Assembly: GCA_963770895.1 (NCBI GenBank)
Contig: CAVYRF010000002.1
Location: 480,001 to 544,000 of the forward strand
Origin: an uncultured Acidobacteriota bacterium
Lineage (GTDB): Bacteria > Acidobacteriota > Thermoanaerobaculia > Multivoradales > UBA5704
Direction of reading: 5' to 3'
DNA: 64,000 nucleotides
The notes below the pieces were generated by a model. The model was not told the DNA's origin. It searched no databases and saw nothing but the letters and a program-made list of their open reading frames with translations. Positions 11,310-28,234 of the stretch are shown one piece after another; within the stretch, counting starts at the first letter, position 1; the number at the start of each line of letters is the position of its first letter. Position numbers and translations under genes: made by a program.

Positions 11310-12515
11310 TCAACCCTGGGCGGCCCCCAAGGGGTCTTCCAGTTCGCCGCGGTGGCGCAGCAGGCGGTCGGTCAGGGCTCGCAGGGGAAGCAGGAGGTCG
11401 TTCTGGGGCGCTATCAGCGGCCACTCAGAGCGCCGGCGGCGGAACAGGGCGTCTGCGCCGGGAAAAGTCGTCTGAACCGGCGCGGCAGGAGCGCCGGGAG
11501 CGGCGGCCTGATTGCGGCAGTAGGCTGCCTGGTGATCGCGGGCGATCGTGGCCGCCTCCCGCAGACTGCCTTCCGCCAACAGCCGGGAGCAGACACCTTC
11601 CAGCAACAGCTCGGCCTCAGCGTGCCGGCCTGCCGCCATCGCGATGAGGCCTTCGGTCCAGGCGCGCCGCAATGCTTCGTGCGGTGAGGCCGGCAGGGTA
11701 TAGAGACCTCGCGCGCGCTCCAGCCACACCGTGCCCGAGCCTTCGGCCAGCCGAATCTCGCACTCGGCACAGGCCAGGGCCACCCGCACCGTCAGGGAAG
11801 GGGCCAGCGCCGGCTCCAACAGGTTCCAGGTGCGTTGCAGGGCCTGCCGCGCCAGCATCCAGTCACCGGCAGCGAGCTGGAGGAAGCCGGCCTCGGCCAG
11901 GCACGCCGCGGCGGAACCGCCCAGCGCCAACTGCGCGAAGACGCGGGCAGCTCTCTGGAAATGCTCCGCGGCGTCGCGCCAGGAGCCCGCCTGCTGGTCC
12001 ACCTGTGCGAAGCCGGCCGTCGCCAGCCCCAGCTCCTCGGACGGAGGATCGTAGACGACAAGATCGAGCATCTCTGAAAACGCCTGGCGCGCCCCGGCAA
12101 CGTCTGCGCGGTGCAGGCGGGCTTTGCCGACCAGCCAGTGAGCCAGCGCCCCCGCCTTGCAAGCCCGCCCATCGCCAGCGCCTACCAGGCTGCCAGCGAG
12201 CACCGCCGCCAGCTCCGCCCGTTCCTCCACCATCGAGGCGTCGGCGGATCGCAGAAGCGCATCCTCCGCCTGCAGGTTCAGCAGCATCACCAGCGTCACC
12301 CGGTGGAAGCGAGGCTGCCTGCGAGCGAGCGGCAATCGCTTGTCCCGCACCATCGCCAGCAGCTGGTCCGCCAGGGCGGCATCCAGCAGCGCACCGGCGA
12401 GCAGAGGCGACGCAGGTTCCTCGCCGGGCCGGTTGTCTGCGGCAGAGAACCCTGGATCGAGCGGCTCGCCCGGAGCCGGCTCGGCGCCCCGTCGGCCGCT
12501 GCCATTGCGCACCAT
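11310..12515 (-). CDS. TPR-like alpha-helical hypothetical protein, paralog of 18698..19993
   Basis: Shares PRFHR, AGALAHWL.GKA.LHR.D, PSEELGLA.AG.AQV, AACLAE.GFLQ, VRVALACAECE, LTDRLLR..GELE with the second copy. Confidence 0.75.
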   Translation of the reverse strand: MVRNGSGRRGAEPAPGEPLDPGFSAADNRPGEEPASPLLAGALLDAALADQLLAMVRDKRLPLARRQPRFHRVTLVMLLNLQAEDALLRSADASMVEERAELAAVLAGSLVGAGDGRACKAGALAHWLVGKARLHRADVAGARQAFSEMLDLVVYDPPSEELGLATAGFAQVDQQAGSWRDAAEHFQRAARVFAQLALGGSAAACLAEAGFLQLAAGDWMLARQALQRTWNLLEPALAPSLTVRVALACAECEIRLAEGSGTVWLERARGLYTLPASPHEALRRAWTEGLIAMAAGRHAEAELLLEGVCSRLLAEGSLREAATIARDHQAAYCRNQAAAPGAPAAPVQTTFPGADALFRRRRSEWPLIAPQNDLLLPLRALTDRLLRHRGELEDPLGAAQG

Positions 12516-12553: not shown

Positions 12554-13126
12554 TCAGCAAGTGCCTCGCCCGTGGCACGCCGCCGGTTGAGCTACTCTGG
12601 CGCCATACGCCGCTCGATCGATGCCGTAGCACAGCACCTCGCTGCCTTGATGCTCCATGCGGTGCTGGAACGTTTCGCCCGCGCGTTCGACCAGCCGCAC
12701 CGCGGCCGTGTTATCGGGATGGATCAGACTGATGACCTGATCCTTGCCCAGGGTGACGAAGGCGTGGGCCAGCGCTGCATGGTTGGCTTCCGTCGCATAG
12801 CCCCGCCCCCAGAAGCCACGAGCCAAGCGGCCGGCCAGCTCGCAACCCGGCCACCCCTCGGCCTCCACCAACCCGATCAAGCCGCAAAATGCGCCGCTCG
12901 CCCGCTCCTCCACCGCCCACATGCCGCACCCGCTGAGATGCCAGCTCCCGATCATGCAGGCCATGTGTCGCCACGACCGGGCGCGATCCCACAGCGCTCC
13001 TTGATCGAAATACCGCATTACCTCCGGGTCCGCATGCAGCGATGCATAGTCATCGAAGTCGGTGCGCTGCAAACACCGCAACATCAGCCTCTCGGTTTCC
13101 AGATTGGGGACTGCCTGCATGAACAT
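12554..13126 (-). CDS. GNAT family N-acetyltransferase (RimJ/RimL-like)
   Basis: LETERLMLR, HADPEVMRY, FWGRGYATEA, IHPDNTAAVRLVERAG. Confidence 0.88.
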   Translation of the reverse strand: MFMQAVPNLETERLMLRCLQRTDFDDYASLHADPEVMRYFDQGALWDRARSWRHMACMIGSWHLSGCGMWAVEERASGAFCGLIGLVEAEGWPGCELAGRLARGFWGRGYATEANHAALAHAFVTLGKDQVISLIHPDNTAAVRLVERAGETFQHRMEHQGSEVLCYGIDRAAYGARVAQPAACHGRGTC

Positions 13127-13487
13127 GCGATGGTCCTCCCAAAAGTGCGTGCGCGATGCGCGACCGAGGAAAACGAGAGCACGGCTAGTCACAGTCGCCC
13201 TCGGGCTCGTCCAGCTGCCACCGGCCGCCAGCGTGGCAAGGCGGCCCGGCATCCCAACGGGATTTATTTTGTAGGGGCCGGTGCCACTTGGGCTGCGGAA
13301 GCAAACTGATGCGAGTAAAAACCACTTACGAGGGCACGAAGCGGTACTTTCGTTCTGCGCGCGCGGGCCAAGGACCAGACCCGCCTGCCCGCCCAGATTT
13401 CTTCGAAGCGAAGCTCCGGGTTCTGGCGCGCGCTGAAGAGGCAATCGATGCCGGCGCCGACAACTGAGGCGGCGTTACCCCAACGCT

Positions 13488-14882
13488 TTAGGCCGCGCGC
13501 CGCAGAAGATCGAGAGCCCGCTGCGCCTCGCTGTGCAGTTCCAATGCCTCGAAAATGGCCATGGATTCATGCGCCAGAGCCTTTACCTCTGCCGACTTGC
13601 CCTGCGTCGCATGAATTTCCGCGAGTTCCAGGGTCACGAGTGCGGCAATGTAGACATTGTGGCTTGCGGCAAAGTCCCGACGCACCTTTTCGAAACCGGT
13701 CACGGCCTCGGCCACGCGGCCCTGGCCGGCCGCCACGCGGCTCTCTAACCAGCTTACTCGCAGGAGTTCCAGCCGCTTGCCGAATCCCTCAGCCATGGAG
13801 CGGATCTCAGAAAGCAGAAGCTCCGCCTCGTGATAACGCTTCAGCTGACATAGATTGACGGCCAGGTTCTTCCGAACGATGTAGTACTTCCATGGCTCTT
13901 GCTCAAAACCGATGTGTCCGGCCGCCTGCTGCAACCACTGGATTGCCCCCTGCAAGTCACCCATTTGTTCCAGGGTCCTGGATTTCCCGAGGAGCAGCGA
14001 TGGCATCTCGCCCCAGCGGTCGATCTTGAGCGCCTCGTCGAGAAGAGCCAGCGCTTCATCGAGCCGACGCTGCGCTCGCCGCAGCGACGCCTTCAGGTGG
14101 AGGACGCGGGCCTCATTGAGATACCCCGGGTCGGCCGCGGCACCCTCCTGCCAGAGCTCCATGCCGTACGCGAATGCCTTTTCGGCTGCCGCGAGATCCC
14201 GACCGCCCACGCGCAGAGCGTTTGCTACATGACATCGTGCATATCCCTCAAGCCGAGAGCGCCACCCGGCACCGACCGGCAGCCGACTGGCGATCAATAC
14301 AGCCAGATCGCCGAGACTTTCAGCCCTCTCGGAGCTATCGCCAGCGGCATCCAGGCTCTTGTCGCAGATCAGCACGCAGAGGCCAGGGCTCTGGAGGTCG
14401 TGAAGGTGGCACACCAACTCCCGCCGCACGGTGTCTGAGTAGCGGTCGATCCGCATCCAAAGCTCCGGCGCTGACCGGCGGCTCTCGATGAAGTCAACGG
14501 GTTCATAGGAGTGCCGGCTTGCCGTCAAATCACGCAGCACAAGGGAAGCAAGGTCAACCCCAAGATCCGCAGCGACGGTTGCGGCTGGAAGGCCTTGTAC
14601 CTGCAAGGTGGTTTGCGCCACAGGTAGGCGTGCCCCTTCGCTGCGAAGCCGGCCCAGAAGCGCAACCACTTCATCGATGGCGCTCAGGGGCATGCCGAGC
14701 GCTGAAGTAATCCGTGCCAGGGTCCCCGGGTTTGGCTCGCCCTTGCCTTGCTCCAGCCGCTTGATCGTATCGACGTGAATTCCCGCCGCACGGGCCAGGG
14801 CCTTCTGCTCCTGGCCTCGCGCCAGACGCAAGAAGCTCAGCGCCAGACCTCTATCGCTTCGATGCCCCGTCTTCGCCCTCAT
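13488..14882 (-). CDS. XRE-family HTH + TPR-like regulator (single HTH; C-terminus truncated)
   Basis: LRLARGQEQKALARAAGIHVDTIKRLEQGKGEP is an HTH_3; C-terminal helical domain homologous to three neighbours; stops about 30 aa early. Confidence 0.8.
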   Translation of the reverse strand: MRAKTGHRSDRGLALSFLRLARGQEQKALARAAGIHVDTIKRLEQGKGEPNPGTLARITSALGMPLSAIDEVVALLGRLRSEGARLPVAQTTLQVQGLPAATVAADLGVDLASLVLRDLTASRHSYEPVDFIESRRSAPELWMRIDRYSDTVRRELVCHLHDLQSPGLCVLICDKSLDAAGDSSERAESLGDLAVLIASRLPVGAGWRSRLEGYARCHVANALRVGGRDLAAAEKAFAYGMELWQEGAAADPGYLNEARVLHLKASLRRAQRRLDEALALLDEALKIDRWGEMPSLLLGKSRTLEQMGDLQGAIQWLQQAAGHIGFEQEPWKYYIVRKNLAVNLCQLKRYHEAELLLSEIRSMAEGFGKRLELLRVSWLESRVAAGQGRVAEAVTGFEKVRRDFAASHNVYIAALVTLELAEIHATQGKSAEVKALAHESMAIFEALELHSEAQRALDLLRRAA

Positions 14883-15037
14883 TTGCGCGCACCCTCATTC
14901 ATTAAGATGGGGCAGGATGACCTCCCCTAGGGAGGCACAGCCTTGTATTTTGTGACCGCCGTCCACATCCAGGATCTTCGAGGCGCCCCGCGGCCAGGCA
15001 GGCCGCGTTGACGTCGCTTCCGAGAAAGGAGCATCCG

Positions 15038-15448
15038 ATGAAGCCGTTCTCCCGTCTTCTGATGGTGGGCATTCTCTTCACGATCTTAGCTGCGCCTGGG
15101 GCGCTTGCGGCCCCTCCATCGCCGCACAGAGTGTCCGCCGGCTCGCCGATTGGTCTCGCCGACGCGTGGGACAGCGTGGTTGCGCGCATGCTGGACTGGC
15201 TGGGCGAGCGGCCCGCAAATCACTCCGGCAGACCGTCCGCTTCGCGGGCGATGTCGCCTGATGAAGGTTGTACAACGGATCCGAATGGACTGTGTGCAGA
15301 TGCAGGGCCGAGAAAGCGGGTGCCATCGAACCTTTCGGCCGGGCCTGGCGGCAAGGCTCTTGGCTTGAGATTCCAATCCAGAATGCCCGTCGAGTCGCCA
15401 GCTGACACTGGTTGCTCGACCGATCCCAACGGGCAGTGCCTTCACTAA
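15038..15448 (+). CDS. Small secreted precursor-like protein with two DxGCxTDPNGxC cores
   Basis: RBS AAAGGAG; signal peptide MKPFSRLLMVGILFTILAAPGALA; cores DEGCTTDPNGLC (15260-15295) and DTGCSTDPNGQC (15404-15439). Confidence 0.75.
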   Translation: MKPFSRLLMVGILFTILAAPGALAAPPSPHRVSAGSPIGLADAWDSVVARMLDWLGERPANHSGRPSASRAMSPDEGCTTDPNGLCADAGPRKRVPSNLSAGPGGKALGLRFQSRMPVESPADTGCSTDPNGQCLH

Positions 15449-15517
15449 GGAGAGGTGGCGCTGGTAATGCCGGACAGGAGCGCTGATAGCGTTCCGATCG
15501 GACCCCAATGCCTCCTC

Positions 15518-17440
15518 TCATGCGGGCGTGCCCTCAAAGGGAAGCTGCGGATTGTGACGGGCCCGGTACAGATACTGGATGAGGCCGCTGAGGAATGAGC
15601 CCGTCGCTCGTTCTTCAGCGGCCGCCCGCCGGAACAGGTCCAGTGCCCGCTGCGCTTCGGCGTGCACCTGCTGCGCGGCGAAAATCGGCGCCGATTTTTC
15701 GGCCAGCACCTTTACCTCGGCCGTGCGCCCCAGGGCAGCATGGATCTGCGCCAGCTCCAGAGTCACCAGGGCGGCATCGTACGCATCCTTGTGACGGGCG
15801 AACTGCTGACGTGCTCGTGCCAGAAGTGAGGCCGCTTCTTTTGTTCGGCCAAGGCCGAATGCGATTTTGCCTTCGAGCCAGATGACCCGAATCTGCTCCA
15901 AGGGCTTGCCAAACTGCATCGCCAATGCATGCACGTTGGGAAGCATCAACGCGGCCTGGCCATACTGTCCGAGATGGCAGAGGGTGGCCGCCAGATTCTT
16001 CTGCACGATGTAGAACTTCCAAGGCTCTTGCTGGGGATCGATACGGGACGAGACCTCCCGCAACACCCTCTCAGCCAGGCTGAAGTCACCCGACTCCTCG
16101 AGCGCTTTAGCCTTGCTGAGGAGCAATGCCGTCGTCTCACCCCAGCGGTCGACCACCAGTGCCTTATTCAACAGCGCCAGAGCGTCCGGAATACGACGTT
16201 GGGCTCGACGCAGTGACGTCTCCAGGTGGAGCACCCGCGCCTCGTTGAGCAGCCCCTGGTCGGCGCCTGCACCGGACCGCCACAGCTGAAGGGCGGCATG
16301 AAATGACTTTTCGGCGGCAACCAGGTCGTCGCCGGCCACACGCATTGCATTGGCGATGTGGCATCGAGCGTAGCCTTCCAGTTGGCAGCGGAATGCCGCA
16401 TCCCCGGGCACTCGCGCCGCGATGAGCAGAGCGAGATCGGCAAGGAGGGCCGCTTCCCTTGCGCTGCCACCCGCGGCCTCCAGGCTCTTGTCGCAGATCA
16501 ACTCGCACAGACCGACGGTGTGGAACTCCGCCCCTTCGCAGACCAAAGCTCGCTGGGCATCCTCCGAGACACGCTGCAGGCACTCCCACTGCAAGGGCGC
16601 CTGCCAGCGGGAAAGCTGAACTCGTGCTACCCACACCAGCCCCTCAAGGCATACCGCCATCCAATCCTCGGCCCGGCGCGCCTGGGCAGCCACCACTTGC
16701 TCGATTGCCTCTCGCGTCGGATCGTCACTGATCGCCATGTGGGATTCCAGCGCCGACGCGGCCAACTGAACGAAACCGAGGGTCCGATCCAGCATCCCTG
16801 GCGGGAATCCCATCCCCTCGACAATGCGGTTGAGCGTCAGCATGCGGGGCACGGTCTTGCCAAGCTCGTAGCTCGAAATCGAGGTTTTGCGAGCACCGAC
16901 GCTCTCGGCAAGATCCTGCTGTCCAGATCTGCGAATCACTCGCAAGATGACCAGCACCACATCCACCGGGAGAGACCCGCGGTCGGACCTGGCCTTTTCA
17001 GGCCGGGAAGACCCGATCCCCGCATCCGTCGCCGGCGTAGCGCCGTCCGCACCTGAACCGTCCGCCTGCTCCCGCACATCGCGAAGGAGGCGCATCAGCA
17101 ACTGGCGAGCGAGCCCTTCCATCCATCCACCGGCTTCGACCGTCAGCCGGTCGAGCCACGCCGAAAGCGCGGGCTGGCCTGCCCCCACGTAAAGCTCTCT
17201 TTCGACCCGCGCCCAGCGCACAAAGGAAACGGTTCGATCGAGAAGCCTGGGTGGATAGCCCATGGCGGCAACCAACAGCTGCCGCGTTTCGAGCGAAGGC
17301 GTCTTCGAACCGCGCTCGAATTTCGCGATCGAGGTGACTTGCAAACCCGCCTGCTGCGCCAGCTCTGAGCGAGTCCAGCGGCGCACCACCCGCAGGATGG
17401 TGAGCGCCTCTGCCCACGGTAGCGCCGCGTCCTCCGCCAT
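15518..17440 (-). CDS. Tandem XRE-HTH + TPR-like regulator
   Basis: Two HTH_3-like segments (LRVVRRWTRSELAQQAGLQVTSIAKFERG; LRVIRRSGQQDLAESVGARKTSISSYELG) plus the conserved helical domain; ATG at 17440 after GGAG. Confidence 0.82.
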   Translation of the reverse strand: MAEDAALPWAEALTILRVVRRWTRSELAQQAGLQVTSIAKFERGSKTPSLETRQLLVAAMGYPPRLLDRTVSFVRWARVERELYVGAGQPALSAWLDRLTVEAGGWMEGLARQLLMRLLRDVREQADGSGADGATPATDAGIGSSRPEKARSDRGSLPVDVVLVILRVIRRSGQQDLAESVGARKTSISSYELGKTVPRMLTLNRIVEGMGFPPGMLDRTLGFVQLAASALESHMAISDDPTREAIEQVVAAQARRAEDWMAVCLEGLVWVARVQLSRWQAPLQWECLQRVSEDAQRALVCEGAEFHTVGLCELICDKSLEAAGGSAREAALLADLALLIAARVPGDAAFRCQLEGYARCHIANAMRVAGDDLVAAEKSFHAALQLWRSGAGADQGLLNEARVLHLETSLRRAQRRIPDALALLNKALVVDRWGETTALLLSKAKALEESGDFSLAERVLREVSSRIDPQQEPWKFYIVQKNLAATLCHLGQYGQAALMLPNVHALAMQFGKPLEQIRVIWLEGKIAFGLGRTKEAASLLARARQQFARHKDAYDAALVTLELAQIHAALGRTAEVKVLAEKSAPIFAAQQVHAEAQRALDLFRRAAAEERATGSFLSGLIQYLYRARHNPQLPFEGTPA

Positions 17441-17625
17441 TCCATGCTCCAACCAAAGTGCCTGCCCTGAGAAAATCCGGTCCCAGCCCGCGGCCGTCCG
17501 CTGCAGAGGAGGACCTTCCAAGGATCTCTAACGTCCAGCACTGTAGAGCTTAAACGATCCCGCCATGATGGCGCTACAACCGAGGCGGTGAGGGCTTTGG
17601 ACCGGTAGCGCAGGCACCTCAACAA

Positions 17626-17892
17626 TTGCCCCGATCGCGACGCGCCTGGCGGCGCGTGCGCGATCGGGCCGGGGGGGGCGGGCGAGGCGTTTTGCCCCGC
17701 TTAGCGCTTCTGGCCGCGGCGGACGCGTTCGAGGAGGCGGGTGGAGTCTTTCATGCACTCCATCATTTTTTCTTGCAGGCCTTCGCCGCGGCCCAGGCCT
17801 CGGGCGTGGGCCAGGACGCTGCGGGCGCGGTCTTCTTCTCCGGAAGCTAGCAGGGCCATGCCGAGGTGGGTGAGGGTGTTGGCGGAGGGGCC
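17626..17892. repeat. Direct repeat copy 1 (267 bp): duplicate of the TPR gene 3' end and its terminator
   Basis: Read base by base as identical to 25418-25685 except G8 versus G9 in a homopolymer. Confidence 0.95.
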
Positions 17893-18268
17893 GACACCGC
17901 ACCTGGGCGACGGCGCCCTGGTGCAGCACCTCGCCCAGGCTGCGCAGCATGCGCAGGACCGAGGCGTGGACGGCCTGCTGCTCCTCCGCGGTCAGGTCAT
18001 CCGCCGGGGCCTCCGCATCCCCGCCGGCCATGGAGAGCAGGAGAGCCACCATCGACGTCGTGAGCTCGCCGACTCCATCCGCCGTGCGCATTGCCGCCAC
18101 CAGTGCGTCGAAGCGCTCTTGGGTCAGGCGGATCTTGCCGTTTTCGTATTGGGACAGCTGACTGCTGCCGGTTCCGCTGGCCTTCGCCAGAGCGGTTTGC
18201 GTCCATCCGTTGATCGCCCGCACGATGGTCAGCGATAGCCCCAGGGCGGAGGGTTGCGATCGGTTCAA
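17893..18268 (-). pseudogene. Truncated XRE-HTH regulator (N-terminal fragment) interrupted by the repeat
   Basis: LGLSLTIVRAINGWTQTALAKASGTGSSQLSQYENG HTH; after about 125 aa it runs out of frame into repeat copy 1; TTG overlaps the upstream TGA. Confidence 0.75.
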
Positions 18269-18690
18269 ACTACCTTCCCCTCATAGAACTGACTTTCCAG
18301 CAGGGCGTTGGTCACCTCGACGGCTGCCAGCAAGGCGTCGGCCGCCGGCTCCAGGTGATCGCTGATCGCGCCTTCTACGGCGGCACGAAGATCCATCCCG
18401 ACGGTGTACGGCGCGCAGTGCTCCTCGCGCGCCTTGAAGTCATCCGGCAGCGGGATCTGTCCGTACAGCTCGCGCAAACGACCCGACAGTTTCTTGATCT
18501 GCGCTGCGATCAGGCGGAGCTGGCGCTTGCGAACCGACAGCGGGTCTTGCGGCCTGCCCGCTTTGCGAGCGGTCTTCCCGGACCGCACCACCGATGCGGG
18601 TCCCCTGCCCGTCCCGGCGTTCCCGGGCGCGCACGACATCCCGTCGAAGGGTGCTGCGATGCGCAGATCAGCAGACCGCTCGCGCGCCAT
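18265..18690 (-). CDS. Hypothetical helical protein
   Basis: ATG at 18690, 8 bp after the upstream stop; stop overlaps the next start; amphipathic helices (RKRQLRLIAAQIKKLSGRLRELY, DLRAAVEGAISDHLEPAADALLAA). Confidence 0.6.
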   Translation of the reverse strand: MARERSADLRIAAPFDGMSCAPGNAGTGRGPASVVRSGKTARKAGRPQDPLSVRKRQLRLIAAQIKKLSGRLRELYGQIPLPDDFKAREEHCAPYTVGMDLRAAVEGAISDHLEPAADALLAAVEVTNALLESQFYEGKVV

Positions 18691-18697
18691 GTCGGAC

Positions 18698-19993
18698 CTA
18701 CTCCAGCATCTCGGGCGAAGCGCCGCACACAGGCTCGAGCTCACCGTGGTAACGCAGCAGCCGGTCGGTCAGGGTGCGCTGCGGGCACAGCAGGTCCGGG
18801 CGCCCCGGCACCGGCTGGTGCGCGCCCAGACGGTCGATCAAGGTGTTGACGGCCTCGTAGTACGCCCGGCGTCCGCGAGCGTCCAAGGCAACCAGATCGC
18901 GCAGCGCCTGCGCCCAGGGGACCCCAGCGATCGCAAAAGCCTGCTCCAGCCCCGCCGCCAGCGCCTCGCCCTGCAAGGCTAGGCCGCCCTCGACCCGCGC
19001 GGTCAGCAGGTCGCAGCTCACGGTGACCGCTTCGGCCAGGCTCCCCTCGCTCAGCAAGCGTGCGTGCACCGCGCCCAGCTGCGCCAGGGCCTCGGCAAAG
19101 CGCCCCGCCGCGGCGGCGATGTGGCCTTCCGCCCAGGTGCGAGCCACGTCCTCGCACCATGGCGCGGGCAGCGCGTACAGCTGTCGCGCGCGCTCCAACC
19201 ACGGTTCCGCATCCAGACCCACCTCGCCCCCCTGGCGGGCTTCGCACTCGGCGCAGGCCAGCGCCACCCGCACCGCCGTCACCGTCGCCGCTGCCTGATC
19301 TTGCAGAAGGACCCAGGCGCGCTTCAGGTTGCCGCGGGCCGCGGCCAGGTCACCCGACTCCATCTGCAGAAAGCCGATTTCGGCCAGGCACGCGGCCAGC
19401 GGCAGGCGCGCCGCGGCCGCGGCGAAGGCGACGGACGCGCGCTGGAAGTACATGACGGCGCTATCCCACCCGCCGTACGCCTGCGCCACCTGCGCCCAGC
19501 CGGCATGCGCCAGGCCCAGTTCCTCGCTCGGCTGGTGCGGCACCTCCAGATAGCTGTGAATACCGCCCAGCGCCGCCGCGGCGGCCGCAGGATCACCACG
19601 GTGCAGGAGCGCCTTGCCCAGCAGCCAATGGGCCAGGGCACCGGCCCGCCTCACGCGACCGCGGGCGTCCCGCACCACGCGCGCCGCCAGAATCGTCGCC
19701 AGCTCGGCCTCCTGCTCGCCGGCATCGGCGCCGTGCGGTGCCAGCACCGCACTTTCGGCCTCCAGGTTGAACAAAGTCAGCAGCTCGGCGCGGTGGAAAC
19801 GTGGGTCTTGTTGGGCCGTTTGTAGCCGCACGGCCCGCGGCATGGCCATCAGCTCCCGCGCCAGGCAGACAGACGCATAGGCGCGTTCCAAAGGCCGGTC
19901 AAGCCAGCCCGAGGCGCCGGGGCCATCTGGCACGGCCGGCGTCAGGCGGAGCGGGGGATTTTCGCCGCGGCGCAAGCTGCCTTCTGGCTCCAT
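18698..19993 (-). CDS. TPR-like alpha-helical hypothetical protein, paralog of 11310..12515
   Basis: Shared motifs with the first copy; start uncertain (ATG 19993 chosen; ORF extends to 20113). Confidence 0.75.
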   Translation of the reverse strand: MEPEGSLRRGENPPLRLTPAVPDGPGASGWLDRPLERAYASVCLARELMAMPRAVRLQTAQQDPRFHRAELLTLFNLEAESAVLAPHGADAGEQEAELATILAARVVRDARGRVRRAGALAHWLLGKALLHRGDPAAAAAALGGIHSYLEVPHQPSEELGLAHAGWAQVAQAYGGWDSAVMYFQRASVAFAAAAARLPLAACLAEIGFLQMESGDLAAARGNLKRAWVLLQDQAAATVTAVRVALACAECEARQGGEVGLDAEPWLERARQLYALPAPWCEDVARTWAEGHIAAAAGRFAEALAQLGAVHARLLSEGSLAEAVTVSCDLLTARVEGGLALQGEALAAGLEQAFAIAGVPWAQALRDLVALDARGRRAYYEAVNTLIDRLGAHQPVPGRPDLLCPQRTLTDRLLRYHGELEPVCGASPEMLE

Positions 19994-20316
19994 GATCGAT
20001 GTCACCCTCCCAAGGATCGGTTCTTCTCGTACCTGCATGTCGGCGTTGCCAGGTGCACGGCTCAGTCCTCGGAACGGGAAATACCCAGCGGCCTTGCCGG
20101 CCTGGCCGAGCACAGGTCACCAGCGGCACGGTTGGCCTGATCGAGCTTCGCTCCGCGCAATCCGGCGGTACCGCGTTACCGGCCACCTCCAGGTCCAGCC
20201 ACCCGATCCATATGCAGACGCTACCCTGCGCTCGACACCTAACCCCCTGGATCTGCCCTGGCGCTGCATCCGGCGTCATTGCCAGGAATCGTGAAATCTC
20301 TTAAGATGGGTATTCG

Positions 20317-20342
20317 TTGACACTTCGTTGCCATGCAACGAA
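20317..20342 (+). promoter_or_regulatory. Candidate -35 (TTGACA) with adjacent palindromic operator
   Basis: TTGACA at 20317-20322 followed by perfect inverted repeat TTCGTTGC-cat-GCAACGAA (20324-20342) in a divergent intergenic region. Confidence 0.45.
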
Positions 20343-20427
20343 ACAGATGCAGCTGGGACGCCGCGCATCGGTCGCGGAGGCGCTGCGCGCCACGCACCCG
20401 GGCATCCACCGATCTTCTGGAGGCGAC

Positions 20428-22347
20428 ATGGCGAAGGACCCGAGGCCGGCCTGGGCCAAGGCCCTCACCACCCTGCGGCTCATCCGTCGTTGGAACCGAA
20501 GAAAGCTGGCGCAGGCGGCAGGGTTGTCGGCCAGCGCGATCACCCGCTACGAAAAAGGCGATCGCGGTACGGTCGAAGACGCGATACGCCTCGGCTTTGC
20601 CATGGGATTCCCCCACCACGTCTGGCAGCGCGTATTGGAATTCGTGGTCGCGGTCGAGGGCATGCACGCAGGTCAGCCGTCGACGCCGGATCAAGGCGCC
20701 AACAGCTCGATTGAAGCGATTGCCAGGACCGCTGCAAAGTGGACAGAGGCGCTGATCAAGTCGGCACTGACCACGACTCTGGTCGAGTCGCGCCGGCAGC
20801 TGAACGTCGCTTCCGTGCCTGCAAAGCGCCAGCCGGCGCGCTCCGCGCTCGCGGGGCGAGCATCGCACGCCAAGCGACCTGCCGCCGCGCCCAGCGCCCC
20901 GCCGGCCACCGGCGAGGCCATCGTCATCCTCCGCATGATGCGTAGCTGGGAACGGCAGGATCTCGCCGACGCAATCGGCCGGCCCGACGAAACCGTCGCC
21001 AACTACGAGTACGGCAGGACTGTGCCCAATCCCCAGGTGCTGCGCGCCCTGCTTGCAGTCATGGACTATCCCCTCGCGGCACTCGAGGCCGCGATCGAGC
21101 TCGTTCATATGGCGCGGGAAGCACACAGGCTCTCGCGCGACGTCGGTCGCGACAGGCAGTCGGCCGAAATCGCCACGATCGCGGCGCAAAAAGCCCGGAG
21201 GGTCGCAGCGTTTACCCGCGGAGAGATGGAAGAGTTGGCGGTCGTGGCGCGGGTCCTGGTGTCCCGCGACGGAGCCGAAAGCCTGTGGGCATCGCTTTCT
21301 GCTTGTTCCGAAAGGAGCCAGCACGACTTGGTGCGCCAGCTGGTTCTGTACCAGACGCCGGGATTTTGCGAGCTGCTCTGCGACGAGAGCCTGAAGGTGG
21401 CGGGGGACAGTGCGCGGCGAGCCAAGCACTTGGCCGAACTGGCGGTCCTGGCCGCCGAGCTGGCCACTGGCAGCGACGCCTTTCGCGCCCGCCTACGCGG
21501 CTTCGCCGGCGCTCACCACGCCAATGCCCTGCGGGTCGCCGGACATCACCTGCCGGCGGCGGGCGCGGCGTTGGATCGCGCCCTGGCGGCGTGGAATGCG
21601 GGTGCCGGGTCCGATGCAGGGATGCTCAATGCAGCGCGGGTATGCGGCCTTCTCGCGTCGATGCGACGCGGACAGCGCCTCCTGCCGGCAGCCATCCAGG
21701 CGCTCGACGAGGGGCTCAGGGTCGACCGCTGGGGCGAGACGCCGGTGCTGCGGCTCGCCAAGGCAAGGGTGCTGATTGAGATGGGAGACTTCGCAGCATC
21801 CATCGATCAGCTGCGGCGGGCGGAGAGCGATTTAGACGGCGAGGCCGAGCCACGACGGTTCTACGTGATCGAGAACTTGCAGGTGCTCAACCTGTGTCAT
21901 CTCGGCCAGTTCGCAGCCGCCGAGCGGAAACTGGCCAGTCTGCGCCGGCTGGCGCGGAGCAATCGGCTCGACCTGCTGCGGGTTGACTGGCTGGCGGGAA
22001 AGGTGGCCGCTGGGCTGAGGCAAGAAACAGAGGCGCTCGCCTTGCTTCTGCAGGCGCGTGCCGGTTTCGTCGAGGTGGGCAACGCCTATGACGCTGCCCT
22101 GGTGACCCTGGAGCTTGCTGAAGTGCAGTCCTCGCTAGGCCACACCGCCGAAGTCAAAGCGCTTGCCCGCAAGTCGGCGCCCATCTTTGCGGACCAGCGG
22201 GTGCACCGGGAAGCGCAGCGGGCGCTCGCATTGTTTCGCGCCGCGGCGGAAGAGGAGAGGGTTACCAGCGACCTGTTGCGTCACCTGATCGTCTATCTCT
22301 GCAAGGCCCGTCACGATCCATCCCTCCGCTTCGCCGCAGAGGGTTGA
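20428..22347 (+). CDS. Tandem XRE-HTH + TPR-like regulator
   Basis: RBS GGAGG then ATG 20428; two HTHs (LRLIRRWNRRKLAQAAGLSASAITRYEKG; LRMMRSWERQDLADAIGRPDETVANYEYG); conserved C-domain ending ARHDPSLRF. Confidence 0.82.
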   Translation: MAKDPRPAWAKALTTLRLIRRWNRRKLAQAAGLSASAITRYEKGDRGTVEDAIRLGFAMGFPHHVWQRVLEFVVAVEGMHAGQPSTPDQGANSSIEAIARTAAKWTEALIKSALTTTLVESRRQLNVASVPAKRQPARSALAGRASHAKRPAAAPSAPPATGEAIVILRMMRSWERQDLADAIGRPDETVANYEYGRTVPNPQVLRALLAVMDYPLAALEAAIELVHMAREAHRLSRDVGRDRQSAEIATIAAQKARRVAAFTRGEMEELAVVARVLVSRDGAESLWASLSACSERSQHDLVRQLVLYQTPGFCELLCDESLKVAGDSARRAKHLAELAVLAAELATGSDAFRARLRGFAGAHHANALRVAGHHLPAAGAALDRALAAWNAGAGSDAGMLNAARVCGLLASMRRGQRLLPAAIQALDEGLRVDRWGETPVLRLAKARVLIEMGDFAASIDQLRRAESDLDGEAEPRRFYVIENLQVLNLCHLGQFAAAERKLASLRRLARSNRLDLLRVDWLAGKVAAGLRQETEALALLLQARAGFVEVGNAYDAALVTLELAEVQSSLGHTAEVKALARKSAPIFADQRVHREAQRALALFRAAAEEERVTSDLLRHLIVYLCKARHDPSLRFAAEG

Positions 22348-22513
22348 ACCATCCACCCCGCCAGGGCTCGGACCGCAACCATGAAACCGCAACCGGTCCT
22401 GGGGGCAAGCTCCTGCGCGAGCTTGTCTGCGACAGGCCTGCTCGGCGGCAGGCTCTCGATCCCGAGCGATTCGACCGCGATCGTGACGGAGAGCCCACCG
22501 TTCGCCGGCGTGC

Positions 22514-22816
22514 CTAGCCGCCGTAGGGGTCGGCTCCCGGTCCTTCGTCGGACTGCGAGGACGGTGGAGGCGCACCGGCCGGTTGCGCCAAGGCGTTCTC
22601 GAGACTCGACGTCGCATGTCCAGACGGGACTCTTGCCGATCCAAGCGTCGGTAGCCGATTCGACAGCCAACCCCAGAGAACCGCCAAGGGTTGCCAGAGT
22701 GAAGAGGAGGCACCACCTGGAGCGTGGGCCGCAACCGGTGAGGCAAAGGCCGCAAGAGGAGGCAGAACGATCAAAAGGACCAGGCCAAGGGCGATGACGC
22801 GGGGGACACGGTGCAT
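22514..22816 (-). CDS. Small secreted precursor-like protein ending DEGPGADPYGG
   Basis: RBS AAGGAGG; signal peptide MHRVPRVIALGLVLLIVLPPLAAFA; Trp-rich SLWQPLAVLWGWL; C-terminal DxGxxxDPxG. Confidence 0.75.
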   Translation of the reverse strand: MHRVPRVIALGLVLLIVLPPLAAFASPVAAHAPGGASSSLWQPLAVLWGWLSNRLPTLGSARVPSGHATSSLENALAQPAGAPPPSSQSDEGPGADPYGG

Positions 22817-23001
22817 ACAGATCCTCCTTGAGCGGGGCGACTGCGAACGCGGCCGGCATGGACCGCGACGGTGCCCCCGAGAGCTACAGTGCCCAGGGTG
22901 TCAAGAATACTGCTAAAAAGTGCGTTTCCAGGGCCTGAAATCTACCCTGTATTGACGCCGCTTTGCCAGGTGCCGTGAGGAGCCTCACTATGCCAGGAGT
23001 G

Positions 23002-24867
23002 ATGGGACGCAGCGACGAGCTGGGATTGGTGCTGATCCTCTTGCGCCACCTCAAGGGCTGGTCGCAGAAGGAGCTGGTGGCTGCGTCGGGAGTCAGCTTC
23101 GGCGGTCTCCGCGGTCTGGAGCAGGGGCAGAGGCGCCAGCCGACGCTGAAGACTCTGGCGCCGCTTGCGATGGCCCTCGGCGTGGACCTGGCAGCCATTG
23201 CCGAGGCGGCAGCCGTGATCCATGGCCTGGGTGGCGCGACCCCACCAGGTGCAGCAGCCGCGGCAACCAGCGGCGCTGAACGGGCCGATGACCTGGTGAT
23301 CACGGTCGAGCCGGACGTTTCTCAGAGCGTCACCGCTGCTCTCTTGGCTGCCGCGTCGGTCGCTTCGCCTGGCCCCGGCCTGCCGCGCAGCGCAGCGCAT
23401 CAGCAGCCGGTGGCGGAAGGGAGCCAGGATCTGGGCCTGGCGGTGAAGCTCCTGCGGTTGCGACGCGGTATGGCGGTGGTGGACCTCGCTCGAATCACGG
23501 GGATGACCGTCGCGACACTGCAAGCGCTCGAGAATGCCAGGCTACGGACACCGCCGGCGAAGCTGTCCGCCGTCCTATCGGCTCTTGGCGTCGACCAAGC
23601 GACGCTGGCAACGACCCTTTCCTTGATCTGCAAGCTCCGGCGCCTGGTGGTCGCGACTGCTTCGTGGGCGGAACAGCCAGCGCTCCCAATGCAAAGCTTG
23701 GCGGAGCCCACCACCTTGCGAGACCAGCTTGCCGCCCTGCTGCTTGACGAGGCCACTGCGGTGCCCGAGCAAGCGGCTTGTGAGGACGAAGCCCGCCAGC
23801 GGGCCACGGCGCTTTGGTCCCTGCTTGCACGTTGCCCACAGACAGCTCTACGGGCGCTGGTACGTCAAGCGCCCGAGCTGCAAAGCGTCGCAGCCTGTGA
23901 AATGTTCTGCCAGCAAAGCCTGGATGTGGCGGGTGACAGCGCGCGCCGGGCAAGGCAGCGGGCCGAGCTGGCGGTCATGGCGGCCGAGCGGGCTCGCGGC
24001 AGCGCAGGCCTTCGCGCGCGCCTTGCAGGCTTCGCCGGCGTTCACCTCGCCAATGCCCTGCGCGTCGCCGGCACCAGCGTACCCACGGCCGGTGTGGCGT
24101 TCGATCGCGCTCTGGCAACCTGGAATGCGGGCGAAGGCGCCGATGGCGGGCGATTGAATGCAGCGCGAGTGCGCGGCCTGGAAGCTTCGATGCGGCGGGC
24201 GCAGCGCCGGCTCACCGAGGCGCTGGCGGCGGTAAACGAAGGTCTCCGCATCGACCGCTGGGGTGAGGCACCGGCCCTGCGCCTCGCCAAGGCCAGGGTG
24301 CTCATCGAGATGGGTGAGTTCGCACCATCGATCGACCAGCTACAGCAGGCCGCCGCTGCAATCGACGGCGATCGCGAGCCGCGCATGCTCTATGTCGTCG
24401 AGAACCTGCACATCCTCAACCTGTGCCACCTGGGGCAGTTCGCGATAGCCGCCCAGCGCCTGCCCAAGCTCCGGCTGCTGGCACAGAGCAATCGCCTCGA
24501 CCTTTTGCTTGCAGAGTGGCTAGCCGGCAAGGTAGCGGCCGGGCTGGGCCGTGTGGCAGAGGCGCTCGCCCTGCTGCTCCAAGTGCGCGCCGATTTCCTG
24601 GAGCGTCACAACGTCTACGACGCGGCCCTGGTCACGCTGGAGATAGCCGAGGTCCACGCATCGCTGGGCCACACGGCAGATGTTAAGGAACTGGCCCGCG
24701 CATCGGCGCCCATCTTCGTGGACCAGCGGGTGCACCGAGAAGCGCGGCGCGGCTTGGCGCTCTTCCGCCAGGCAGCCGAAGACGAAAAGGCGACCGGCGA
24801 GTTGCTCCACCGGCTGCTCGTCTATCTGCGCAGTGCCCGCCAGGATCCCCACCTGCGCTTCGCCTGA
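23002..24867 (+). CDS. Tandem XRE-HTH + TPR-like regulator
   Basis: AGGAG before ATG 23002; HTHs LRHLKGWSQKELVAASGVSFGGLRGLEQG and LRLRRGMAVVDLARITGMTVATLQALEN; conserved C-domain ending ARQDPHLRF. Confidence 0.82.
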   Translation: MGRSDELGLVLILLRHLKGWSQKELVAASGVSFGGLRGLEQGQRRQPTLKTLAPLAMALGVDLAAIAEAAAVIHGLGGATPPGAAAAATSGAERADDLVITVEPDVSQSVTAALLAAASVASPGPGLPRSAAHQQPVAEGSQDLGLAVKLLRLRRGMAVVDLARITGMTVATLQALENARLRTPPAKLSAVLSALGVDQATLATTLSLICKLRRLVVATASWAEQPALPMQSLAEPTTLRDQLAALLLDEATAVPEQAACEDEARQRATALWSLLARCPQTALRALVRQAPELQSVAACEMFCQQSLDVAGDSARRARQRAELAVMAAERARGSAGLRARLAGFAGVHLANALRVAGTSVPTAGVAFDRALATWNAGEGADGGRLNAARVRGLEASMRRAQRRLTEALAAVNEGLRIDRWGEAPALRLAKARVLIEMGEFAPSIDQLQQAAAAIDGDREPRMLYVVENLHILNLCHLGQFAIAAQRLPKLRLLAQSNRLDLLLAEWLAGKVAAGLGRVAEALALLLQVRADFLERHNVYDAALVTLEIAEVHASLGHTADVKELARASAPIFVDQRVHREARRGLALFRQAAEDEKATGELLHRLLVYLRSARQDPHLRFA

Positions 24868-25100
24868 TTCCTATGAGCACGAAGCCCGTATCATGGACGA
24901 GCAAGCCGAGAGACGCCGGACGGGATTCGATCACTGATCTAACACTGCGACGGGCGGCGCTTGGCAGCGGCGAGCCGCACCGTGCGGGCGTTCGTTTTTT
25001 CAGTCTCGACCGCCGGCTTGGCGCCGGTGCGTTCGGCGGCGCCCGCCCCGAGGCCAATCCCGACCGGGCGCGGTTGGCGCGCCAGAAAGGGCACTCGTCC

Positions 25101-25643
25101 ATGCATAGTTCCGTCGCGCTTCGCATCGCCAAGGTCACGGCCGCGCTAGCCCTGATGGTACCCCTGGCCCTGACGGCCAGGACCCCTTGCAGGTTCGCGG
25201 TCTCTCATCAGCAAATGGTCGCGGGCACCAGCATTCTGGACCAGGCATATCGCTGGTTCGTCTCGGTCCTGCCCTGGAGCAGCCCCGGCACCGAGCCCCG
25301 GCCTCTTCAGCGCGCCCCAGCTCGTCCCGTGAAGCCGCTCACCACGTGTACGATCGATCCAAGCGGCGGTTGCGTCAGCAGCAATATCCCGGCATCTATC
25401 CAAAGCGCCAAAAACAGTTGCCCCGATCGCGACGCGCCTGGCGGCGCGTGCGCGATCGGGCCGGGGGGGGGCGGGCGAGGCGTTTTGCCCCGCTTAGCGC
25501 TTCTGGCCGCGGCGGACGCGTTCGAGGAGGCGGGTGGAGTCTTTCATGCACTCCATCATTTTTTCTTGCAGGCCTTCGCCGCGGCCCAGGCCTCGGGCGT
25601 GGGCCAGGACGCTGCGGGCGCGGTCTTCTTCTCCGGAAGCTAG
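25101..25643 (+). CDS. Small secreted precursor-like protein with TTCTIDPSGGC core (3' end uncertain)
   Basis: AGAAAGGG before ATG; hydrophobic N-terminus, ILDQAYRWFVSVLPW, core at 25341-25373; as assembled it reads antisense into the TPR gene. Confidence 0.55.
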   Translation: MHSSVALRIAKVTAALALMVPLALTARTPCRFAVSHQQMVAGTSILDQAYRWFVSVLPWSSPGTEPRPLQRAPARPVKPLTTCTIDPSGGCVSSNIPASIQSAKNSCPDRDAPGGACAIGPGGGGRGVLPRLALLAAADAFEEAGGVFHALHHFFLQAFAAAQASGVGQDAAGAVFFSGS

Positions 25644-25685
25644 CAGGGCCATGCCGAGGTGGGTGAGGGTGTTGGCGGAGGGGCC
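25418..25685. repeat. Direct repeat copy 2 (268 bp), native 3' end of the TPR gene plus terminator
   Basis: Matches 17626-17892. Confidence 0.95.
25422..25460 (-). terminator. Hairpin terminator of the hbd-TPR unit (duplicated at 17630-17668)
   Basis: CCCGATCGCG-ACGCGCC-tggc-GGCGCGT-g-CGCGATCGGG stem; TGTTTTT follows shortly after on the minus strand. Confidence 0.6.
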
Positions 25686-27341: not shown

Positions 27342-27343
27342 CC

Positions 27344-28234
27344 TCACTTGGCCGGGGCCTCCTGGTAGTCGTAAAAGCCGCGTCCCGACTTGCGGCCGAG
27401 GTGGCCGGCGTCGACCATCTTGACCAGCAGCGGGCACGGACGGTACTTGGGATCGCCGAAGCCCTCCTGCAGCACGCGCAGGATGTCCAGGCAGACGTCC
27501 AGCCCGATCAGGTCGGCGAGCGCCAGCGGTCCCATGGGATGGTTCATCCCAAGCTTCATAACCTGATCGATGGCCGCCGCCTTCCCCACTCCCTCGTAGA
27601 GGCAGAAGATCGCCTCGTTGATCATCGGCATCAGCACCCGGTTGGAGACGAACCCCGGCGCGTCGTAGACCTCGACCGGCGTCTTGCCCATCTGCCGCGC
27701 CGCCGCCTCTACCGTGTCGTAGGTGTGCTGGTCGGTCGCCAGGCCGCGGATGATCTCCACCAGCTGCATGACCGGCACCGGGTTCATGAAGTGCATGCCG
27801 ATGACCTTGCCCGGCCGCCGCGTGGCGGCAGCCAGCCGGGTGATCGAGATCGAGCTGGTATTGGTGCCCAGGATCGCGTGCTCCGGGCAGACCCGGTCGA
27901 GCTCGGCAAGCACGCGCTGCTTGACCTCGAGCTTTTCGACCACCGCTTCGATCGCCAGGTCGACCTGGGCCAGCGCCGCCAGGTCGCCGCCGGTCGAGAC
28001 CCGCGCCAGCGCCCGGTCGCGGTCTTCGGCCGCCAGCTTCCCCTTGTCCACCAGCCGGGCCAGCCCCTTGCCGATCTGGGCCACGCCGCGCGCCAGCGCC
28101 GCCGGCGCCGCATCCACCAGGGTCACCTGGTAGCCCGCTTGCGCCGCCACCTGGGCGATGCCATGCCCCATGGTGCCGGCCCCCACCACCCCGATCCGCA
28201 GCCCGCTCGCCTCACCTGCCGCCGTCTCGCTCAT
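27344..28234 (-). CDS. hbd: 3-hydroxybutyryl-CoA dehydrogenase
   Basis: GVVGAGTMGHGIA, IEAVVE, NTSSISIT, GMHFMNPVP, PGFVSNR, HPMGPLALADLIGLD. Confidence 0.93.
   Translation of the reverse strand: MSETAAGEASGLRIGVVGAGTMGHGIAQVAAQAGYQVTLVDAAPAALARGVAQIGKGLARLVDKGKLAAEDRDRALARVSTGGDLAALAQVDLAIEAVVEKLEVKQRVLAELDRVCPEHAILGTNTSSISITRLAAATRRPGKVIGMHFMNPVPVMQLVEIIRGLATDQHTYDTVEAAARQMGKTPVEVYDAPGFVSNRVLMPMINEAIFCLYEGVGKAAAIDQVMKLGMNHPMGPLALADLIGLDVCLDILRVLQEGFGDPKYRPCPLLVKMVDAGHLGRKSGRGFYDYQEAPAK

Follow-up and report, generated by a model that had tools for sequence, protein, structure and literature searches.

A conserved gene cassette pairs HTH-TPR regulators with predicted exported repeat peptides in Acidobacteriota

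Introduction

Do the small peptide genes that lie among a group of DNA-binding regulators in an uncultured Acidobacteriota bacterium encode ligands of these regulators? The question is raised by a 64,000-nucleotide stretch of its genome (assembly GCA_963770895.1, contig CAVYRF010000002.1, positions 480,001 to 544,000; called the window throughout), which between 11.3 and 25.7 kb carries four paralogous regulators (R1-R4) with an XRE-type helix-turn-helix (HTH) and a tetratricopeptide repeat (TPR)-like domain, together with three small peptide open reading frames (ORFs; P1-P3). An earlier note, made from the sequence of the window alone, had read the locus as an analogue of the RRNPP receptor-peptide systems of Bacillota. 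Here, we follow this proposal through the host genome, its relatives and predicted structures. The cassette that couples HTH-TPR regulators to predicted exported repeat peptides is real, conserved and highly expanded. Whether the system represents independently evolved RRNPP-like receptor-peptide signalling is a question on which we put the chances at about even.

The host genome comprises 8.16 Mb in three contigs with a GC content of 70.7%. It contains five Omp85 matches and the host is therefore diderm. The best 80 relatives in species-representative genomes, found with alignment A2 as the query (R1 alone gave 44 pattern matches, none of which was confirmed), all come from metagenome-assembled genomes of Acidobacteriota, mostly labelled Thermoanaerobaculia and from soil-type studies. 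The earlier note had placed the DNA in a probably acidobacterial diderm, and both the relatives and the Omp85 matches agree with it.

Results and discussion

Regulators and peptide genes form a conserved three-gene cassette

The recurring unit consists of a first regulator (R_A), a peptide gene on the opposite strand that is convergent with R_A and divergent from the next gene, and a second regulator (R_B). The window holds two such cassettes, R2/P1/R1 (w1) and R3/P2/R4 (w2), and beside them the extra peptide gene P3, two HTH-less genes (T1 and T2) and a truncated gene (H1). Nine R-pep-R cassettes are present in the host genome, and in 43 of the 80 foreign loci the peptide gene likewise lies on the opposite strand between two R genes of the same strand.

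Linkage was followed from both partners. All 30 returned peptide loci (28 foreign, two own) had an R homologue in their 1.5-kb flanks. In the other direction, a hidden Markov model (HMM) of the peptide gave a hit within 2.5 kb in 47 of the 80 foreign R loci. Among the 33 remaining loci, 23 peptide-less R-R gaps were examined, and in 19 of them an ORF on the opposite strand had been missed that is hydrophobic at its N-terminus and carries a [DN]PxG motif. This brings the R loci with a nearby peptide gene to 66/80. The control consisted of 400 random segments drawn from the window's own genome only and gave seven hits, all beside R-like genes: the family itself accounts for six, and in the remaining case a weak R-like match is 0.4 kb away. 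The pairing of regulator and peptide genes is far beyond chance, and the co-occurrence check that the earlier note had proposed came out in its favour. Each of the 14 peptide genes in the host genome, the further members of which were recovered with an HMM built from eight seeds, adjoins an R-family gene. The pattern C..DP.G.C occurs 10 times in the six frames of the whole genome, seven times within four small ORFs beside R paralogues.

Two further paralogous families accompany the cassettes. The T family has eight matches in the genome, mostly at R loci. A frequent site for T is upstream of R_A in divergent orientation, as with T2 and R3; the order T(-) R_A(+) pep(-) R_B(+) was found in other species too. 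The T profile aligns to columns 129-445 of the R C-terminal domain (hhalign probability 96.9%, E 2e-10, 308 columns) and, judged by this alignment, T is an HTH-less paralogue of the whole domain. The AlphaFold2 (AF2) model of T2 is helical over residues 72-431 at a predicted local distance difference test (pLDDT) score of 74.7. As side observations, the N- and C-termini of the family are disordered in AF2 models, a LTDRLLRHRGELE motif is conserved at the C-terminus, and the ESM Atlas clusters nearest to it consist of unnamed TPR proteins from Acidobacteriota. Members of the H subfamily combine an HTH, an R-like TPR domain and a second, C-terminal HTH in 668 aa (C2:1822242-1824275 and three paralogues); these four full-length copies are mutually close and lie divergently upstream of cassettes.

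In a tree of the C-terminal domains, R_A and R_B of the same cassette are often sisters (w1, w2, c1824 and c4269; R2 is the sister of R1), and four other cassettes split into an A-clade and a B-clade. This pattern means that either gene conversion has taken place or a common partner exerts selection on both regulators.

The neighbourhoods of the cassettes were compared by an all-against-all ORF comparison within 7 kb of 10 own-genome loci, a scope that applies to all statements on linked genes below. The recurring families are R, H, T and the peptide only, apart from MacB/FtsX permeases at three loci. These permeases are abundant in Acidobacteria, and their presence was therefore judged to be due to chance. 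Genes for proteases, transporters or modifying enzymes do not recur, and neither do immunity-like genes. A biosynthetic gene cluster for ribosomally synthesised, post-translationally modified peptides (RiPPs) was considered and rejected, there being no recurrent modifying or processing enzyme.

The intergenic region between R_B and the peptide gene carries a candidate cis element. Four sister cassettes share ACGGAAAAAGTGTATTTTTAACC in this region (also written AAAAAGTGTATTTTT), and its core is present at those four genome sites only. The AT-rich near-palindrome AAAAAGTRTATTTTT likewise has only four occurrences in the genome, always between R_B and the peptide gene of the four sister cassettes. 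We regard the shared element as a candidate operator or promoter, the distribution of which would fit local control.

The peptide genes encode a family of predicted Sec-type propeptides with tandem cores

P1-P3 are members of a so far unannotated family, the predicted Sec-type propeptides of which consist of a signal peptide, a Trp-rich amphipathic motif and one to six cores with the consensus [DK][NEAT]G-C-x-[ILV]-D-P-x-G-x-C. The logo obtained from 223 cores in 93 distinct peptides is slightly wider, [DK][NEAT]-G-C-x-[ILAMV]-D-P-[NDYS...]-G-x-C. Gly is found at position -4 in 207 of these cores, Cys at -3 in 175, and a Cys at +5 in 126, at +4 in a further 15 and at +6 in 22. Most peptides have two or three cores and many end in ...GRCxxGH*; canonical members have three to four tandem cores, for example KPQNGCGIDPNGGQQC x4. 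Variants without Cys (GMSIDPDG, DPYGG*, MDPDG*) retain the rest of the core, and the DPYGG* terminus of P2 has three further copies in the genome. The Trp-rich motif directly precedes the first core in 75 of the 93 peptides.

The earlier note had described the three small ORFs as carrying a ribosome-binding site (RBS), a signal peptide and a DPxG core, and each of these features was found in place. P1, P2 and P3 have a basic N-terminus followed by a hydrophobic segment (KD19 maxima of 2.25, 2.67 and 1.81), and a GAAAGGAG-type RBS precedes their ATG by 5-10 nt; in P1, GAGAAAGGAG lies 6 nt upstream of the ATG, and an AT-rich stretch is found nearby amid DNA of 70% GC. By simple rules, signal-peptide features are present in 91 of the 93 peptides, a figure that is partly circular since both the HMM seeds and the trimming of start codons made use of hydrophobic N-termini. 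None of the 14 own-genome peptides matched a Pfam or NCBIfam family, and a search of the ESM Atlas returned unnamed Acidobacteriota clusters with scores of 0.85-0.88, to be taken as a lead only.

High-GC genomes yield many long spurious ORFs, and the small ORFs could in principle be chance antisense frames, with the regulators as the only genes. We consider this hardly credible. The peptide genes look real because a strong GAAAGGAG-type RBS is present in nine of nine own-genome cassettes, because the ratio of non-synonymous to synonymous substitution rates (dN/dS) lies below 1 in eight of eight pairs (0.20-0.73), because the peptide profile is present in 23 of the 24 genomes of the taxonomic family (and in 3 of 16 from other families of the order), and because the cores are conserved. 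Motif, leader, RBS, position and strand are kept across genera, and control segments away from R genes are free of hits.

The regulators combine an XRE-HTH with a predicted peptide-wrapping TPR superhelix

The four regulators that the earlier note had described as paralogues with long shared motifs were found in place. R2, R3 and R4 are 45%, 40% and 42% identical to R1 in alignment A2, in which the motifs ICDKSLxAAGDS, HxANALRVxG, LNEARVxxLxASLRRxQRR, DRWGE, NLCHLGQ, YDAALVTLELAE and VHxEAxRALxLFRxAA were seen, and these are conserved in relatives. Pfam HTH_3 matched all four proteins (E 4e-9 to 2e-17; R1 4.4e-9), as did HTH_31, with one N-terminal HTH stretch in R1 and two each in R2, R3 and R4. 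Generic TPR models lie at or just below their cut-off over the C-terminal 330 residues (for R1, TPR_12 at 30.8 bits against a cut-off of 30.1), and NCBIfam gave sub-threshold HTH matches only. No dedicated Pfam or NCBIfam model was found for the regulator family. R1-R4 are devoid of signal peptides and transmembrane-like segments.

The AF2 model of R1, computed with A2 as input (pLDDT 84.6), places the HTH at residues 10-61 and helical repeats at 129-464, with a disordered linker (83-129) in between. Foldseek retrieved generic TPR superhelices with this model, and by E-value Rap appeared at rank 37 behind generic TPR proteins. In VIA, the Z scores were 23.5 for LGN, 22.9 for the Rap of phage phi3T with its pheromone (8rsv), 22.7 for RapJ-CSF (4gyo; root-mean-square deviation 3.7 over 284 residues) and 21.2-21.3 for NprR (4gpk, 5dbk), with subunits of the APC/C trailing at about 20. 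LGN is itself a peptide-wrapping TPR protein. Together with the HTH_3 matches, the superhelix bears out the two-domain architecture of the earlier note; of the comparison with RRNPP structures that it had suggested, the likeness to Rap and NprR stood and its specificity did not. As modelled, the fold is that of peptide-wrapping TPR receptors and is not RRNPP-specific, because LGN, Rap and NprR are effectively tied. When the R profile was run against PDB sequences, the best 60 of 124 matches included XRE HTHs (C.BclI, HipB, 434 repressor) and consensus TPRs, and no chain of Rap, NprR, PlcR, Rgg, PrgX or AimR was among these 60.

The HTH resembles those of phage repressors, HipB, C-proteins and RmrA/CapH, which raises the possibility of a selfish or defence module (a phage-like repressor pair, an addiction module or an anti-phage system); the XRE-HTH proteins would then act as immunity repressors and the small ORF would be incidental. 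The lowered GC content of the region (0.666 versus 0.700 in the rest of the window) and a 272-nt repeat that records local rearrangement would fit such an origin. A known anti-phage defence system was rejected with PADLOC, in which the matches of R and H are confined to the HTH stretches (RmrA, HTH_VI and capH models), cover no functional domain, and leave T2 and P1 unmatched. Among IMG/VR viral contigs, 96 pattern matches for relatives were obtained and none was confirmed; integrase, toxin and nuclease genes do not recur at the loci, and the small ORF shows both conservation and purifying selection. On balance, we regard a selfish or defence module as very improbable.

The system is expanded within genomes and concentrated in one family

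The host genome contains 41 R-family matches, and relatives contain up to 40 or more. With R1 as the query, matches were obtained in 38 of 41 related genomes, typically 16-41 in each, and in all 24 genomes of the same taxonomic family. In a wider sample of 301 Acidobacteriota genomes, an R match at E <= 1e-20 was present in six, five of them from the order of the host and one from its class. The R profile searched against 1.84 billion representative proteins returned 2,550 clusters (50% identity) at E <= 1e-30, the proteins typically measuring about 490 aa with a single HTH and about 630 aa with two. The earlier note had recognised the adjacency of regulator and peptide genes; it had overlooked the three-gene cassette, the Cys-bounded tandem cores, the T and H paralogues and the dozens of copies per genome across a Thermoanaerobaculia family.

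Distant families pair an R-like gene with a signal-peptide ORF on the same strand that ends in other C-terminal cores, such as ...GVYIDPIGNS* (YIDPIG; G025:C2:251000-257500) or QGKLIIPWP with QGKLILPHP (G079:C27:6000-12500). The pairing outlives the DPxG motif, since these relatives keep the signal-peptide ORF with different cores. Genes, conserved linkage and order, sequence features, predicted fold and taxonomic range are established.

Core class shows a suggestive association with residues of the TPR-like domain

If the regulators bind the cores of their own cassette, residues of the receptor might vary with the core. The residue class in DP-x-G (polar versus aromatic/hydrophobic) is the same in a fraction of 0.89 of core pairs within a precursor, compared to 0.52 between precursors. 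Four R columns in one stretch, equivalent to H262, E283, D288 and S295 of R1, track this class. Arg at the S295 equivalent is present in 37/57 receptors beside polar cores versus 1/46 beside aromatic ones; Glu at the E283 equivalent shows the opposite pattern (2/57 versus 25/46). Fetching 60 more regions yielded only 31 non-redundant further receptors, in which the counts were 15/20 versus 1/11 for Arg and 0/20 versus 5/11 for Glu. R1 and R2 break the rule, having polar cores and no Arg. In the phylogeny-aware test, 11 independent pairs were available, of which about four were informative, all in the same direction (p ~0.125). The covariation is suggestive as a hint of receptor-ligand coupling and is underpowered. 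Co-folding of R1 130-464 with P1 25-136 gave ipSAE values of 0.01 and 0.01 with a low-confidence partner fold, and speaks neither for nor against binding.

Signal, effector or envelope feedback

Receptor-peptide signalling is favoured by the linkage of the cassettes, by the signs that the peptide genes are real, by the receptor-like predicted fold of regulators devoid of signal peptides and transmembrane-like segments, by the pherotype-like uniformity of core class within a precursor and by the suggestive covariation of this class with receptor residues. It is favoured, too, because no linked modifying enzyme, immunity gene or transporter suggests a RiPP or bacteriocin, because the HTH-less T parallels Rap as compared to NprR and PlcR, because the genome encodes two OppA-type binding proteins (SBP_bac_5), unlinked to cassettes, and one DsbA, and because regulators of more distant relatives still have a peptide partner, though one with other C-terminal cores. 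We infer a course of export, disulfide formation, processing, re-import, binding and regulatory outcome, as follows. The propeptide would be exported by Sec, and its one to six tandem cores would be excised, probably as short disulfide-closed loops. These would build up extracellularly, cross the outer membrane and be re-imported, after which they could bind the TPR groove of the cognate regulators. Binding would alter the occupancy by the regulators of operators in the R_B-peptide intergenic region and elsewhere. On this signalling reading the system would amount to quorum sensing or kin discrimination of RRNPP style that arose independently in a diderm, a description that in our judgement is about equally apt to prove right or wrong. 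More tentatively, and with chances that we place somewhat below even, diderms may here have their first family of systems for peptide quorum sensing (or kin recognition) through cytoplasmic receptors. Such a family would have been put together from an XRE-HTH and a TPR superhelix without descent from RRNPP, and its pheromones would be multi-copy, disulfide-looped DPxG peptides, each read by two receptors and an HTH-less modulator. In soil Thermoanaerobaculia it would have diversified into thousands of variants, with dozens of channels in a single genome.

A number of observations weigh against signalling. The host being diderm, a signal would need to cross the outer membrane twice, and neither a transporter nor a protease linked to the cassettes was found. 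The conserved pairs of Cys suggest a structure that is oxidised and extracytoplasmic; it would be reduced in the cytoplasm, where R resides. Two receptors per peptide are not the norm in RRNPP systems. Many cassettes of one genome share DP[NDS]G cores and therefore specificity may be low. The homogeneity of cores within a precursor is explicable by recent duplication of repeats and the raw association between cores and receptors by shared ancestry; phylogeny-aware covariation is not significant (10-11 independent pairs, about four informative, p ~0.125-0.25). The matches to the TPR fold are generic, with LGN, APC/C and designed CTPR proteins scoring alike, and sequence similarity to RRNPP receptors is limited to generic HTH_* and TPR_* matches in Pfam and to generic HTH and TPR matches among the best 60 of 124 in the PDB profile search. 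Finally, the runs that hold the stretch are four DNA soil-metagenome runs of one study, with no RNA run listed.

Several of these points would be accommodated by a regulator-effector module, the main rival, which we consider unlikely though far from negligible. Here the peptides would be secreted Cys-loop repeat effectors with an extracellular role: they might, for instance, be antimicrobial or bacteriocin-like, bind metal or Ca, or inhibit proteases as tandem nine-residue disulfide loops. R_A and R_B would be dedicated local regulators, the TPR domain of which senses something else or merely mediates oligomerisation. Bowman-Birk loops offer a comparison for protease-inhibiting tandem disulfide loops. 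Adjacency alone fits effectors equally well, the Cys pairs and the DPxG turn suggest a stable extracellular fold, similar cores recur across many cassettes, and the diderm envelope makes re-import costly. However, genes for immunity, export or modification do not recur at the loci and the Cys-free variants keep the core. It is also hard to explain why two private TPR regulators would be co-duplicated with each small gene in 2,550 or more clusters, and the association of core class with TPR-repeat residues is unexpected if R never meets the peptide.

Alternatively, the regulators might meet the peptide without any exchange between cells. In such an envelope or secretion feedback, which we regard as improbable, they would bind the unexported precursor (for example its Trp-rich motif) or a fragment derived from the periplasm of their own cell, and would report the state of export or of the envelope in cis instead of cell density. 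The position of the Trp-rich motif directly before the first core in most peptides, the cytoplasmic location of R predicted from its sequence and the lack of linked import machinery agree with this idea, but it leaves unexplained why the C-terminal cores are so strongly conserved and repeated in tandem, and why there are dozens of diversified copies per genome.

Comparison with known peptide systems

The signalling reading invites comparison with the RRNPP/RRNPPA systems of Bacillota (PlcR-PapR, NprR-NprX, Rap-Phr, AimR-AimP). These likewise have cytoplasmic receptors with an XRE-HTH (in all members but Rap) and a C-terminal TPR-type superhelix, and an adjacent gene for a small Sec-type propeptide, the short C-terminal part of which is the conserved, diversifying unit. 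Both also have an HTH-less receptor paralogue (T here, Rap there), and the predicted R1 model reaches Z scores of 21-23 to Rap and NprR. The differences are considerable. Apart from generic HTH and TPR matches, no sequence homology was detected in Pfam or among the best 60 of 124 PDB profile matches; the cassettes belong to a diderm member of Acidobacteriota/Thermoanaerobaculia, whereas RRNPP systems are described in monoderm Bacillota or their mobile elements; two receptors flank each peptide gene, which is antisense between them; and the cores are tandem, usually Cys-bounded 12-mers instead of one linear 5-10-mer. The analogy drawn in the earlier note is therefore retained in part: architecture and enriched pairing support it, and membership of RRNPP by descent, for which there are generic HTH and TPR matches only, is unsupported.

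Multi-copy precursors such as the yeast alpha-factor and the cyanobactin precursor PatE carry tandem short cores, each behind a conserved short flank. They share with P1-P3 the tandem cores in a single exported or processed precursor, but here no processing or modifying enzyme is linked and the partner is a pair of transcription factors. In PatS-HetR of heterocystous cyanobacteria, which are diderm, the short C-terminal part of a ribosomal peptide has as its target a cytoplasmic protein that binds DNA; unlike the present system, HetR is not an HTH-TPR protein, PatS is not known to have a Sec signal peptide or repeats, and neither is known to form paralogous expansions.

RRNPP is described as a Gram-positive trait in passages of three papers (PMC10075063, PMC9765709, PMC7425212), and the Alo systems of Paenibacillus, with more than 25 receptor-peptide pairs per genome, are described as a record in the last of these (Voichek et al., 2020; PMC7425212). 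Massive expansion within a genome is common to Alo and to the present system with its 41 R-family matches and 14 peptide genes; what sets Alo apart is membership of RRNPP, a monoderm host, a peptide gene placed downstream in an operon and a single core. The earlier note knew of no description of such a system, and full-text literature searches on Acidobacteria and other diderms found none either.

If the signalling reading is true, it would mean a convergent evolution of peptide-receptor signalling logic in an abundant, mostly uncultured soil phylum, and it would raise the question of how short peptides pass a diderm envelope in both directions. The regulator clusters would then represent a large natural library of matched receptor-peptide pairs. 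Even if the peptides were effectors, two large unannotated protein families would be defined, together with a conserved cassette by which the regulatory gene content of these genomes is dominated.

Gene map of the window and neighbouring genes

Coordinates of the cassette genes, the intergenic regions and the repeat are collected in Table 1.

Table 1. Features of the cassette region (window coordinates) and host-genome positions of the shared near-palindrome.
Feature	Position	Strand	Description
T1	11310..12515	-	401 aa, HTH-less paralogue of the regulators' TPR-like domain
R1	13488..14882	-	464 aa, R_B of w1, one XRE-HTH and predicted TPR-like superhelix, divergent from P1
R1-P1 divergent intergenic region	14883..15037		candidate promoters and operator, P1 RBS
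P1	15038..15448	+	136-aa propeptide: signal peptide, Trp-rich motif, cores CTTDPNGLC and CSTDPNGQC
R2	15518..17521	-	667 aa, R_A of w1, two HTHs and TPR-like domain, convergent with P1
H1	17528..18268	-	truncated H-subfamily copy; about the first 126 aa match full-length H (tblastn)
272-nt direct repeat, copy 1	17621..17892		3' end of a P3-like gene (G8) and 3' end of 647-aa TPR gene
T2	18698..20113	-	471 aa, HTH-less paralogue, divergent from R3
R3	20317..22347	+	676 aa, R_A of w2, two HTHs and TPR-like domain, convergent with P2
P2	22514..22816	-	100-aa propeptide, Cys-free type, end DEGPGADPYGG*; RBS AAGGAGG
P2-R4 divergent intergenic region	22817..22962		contains TTGACA-N17-TGTAGCT
R4	22963..24867	+	634 aa, R_B of w2, two HTHs and TPR-like domain, divergent from P2, upstream of P3
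P3	25101..25643	+	signal peptide, Trp-rich motif, core CTIDPSGGC, degenerate CPDRDAPGGAC; C-terminus uncertain
272-nt direct repeat, copy 2	25413..25685		99% identity to copy 1
AAAAAGTRTATTTTT sites, host genome	C2:1901465, C2:3839027, C2:5556128, C1:2039672		R_B-peptide intergenic regions

The earlier note's reading of P3 as a DPxG ORF holds for the core and less so for its end: the C-terminus is uncertain because the stop at 25643 hangs on a G9 run near 25462-25470. The repeat copy at 17621-17892 has G8 in its place, and the frame then stops 27 codons past the CPDRDAPGGAC motif. The 272-nt repeat carries the P3 3' end together with the last ~190 nt of a convergent gene, and its copy at 17.6 kb truncates H1. 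The difference between the copies may reflect a recent local rearrangement or a long-read homopolymer error. The product of the convergent gene (25494-27437, minus strand) has 647 aa, many TPRs and, in its N-terminal part, a zinc-ribbon-like CxxC...CxxC stretch; its NCBIfam matches to PrsT, MamA and PilW-type TPR proteins are sub-threshold.

A 159-aa ORF (18265-18744, minus strand) shares a few bases with the stop of T2 and with the start of H1. For its C-terminal ~90 aa, weak homologues are present at four other sites of the genome and near R or T in four foreign loci; it was rejected as a part of the cassette, as its weak homologues lie both near and away from cassettes in inconsistent positions. 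Two other neighbours were judged by eye from their translations, a GNAT-like acetyltransferase ORF between T1 and R1 (12554-13444, minus strand) and, upstream, an FAD-monooxygenase-like ORF (9984-11198, plus strand). Within the cassette region (13402-25643), the GC content falls to 0.629 in R1 and 0.633 in P1, compared to 0.707 in the genome.

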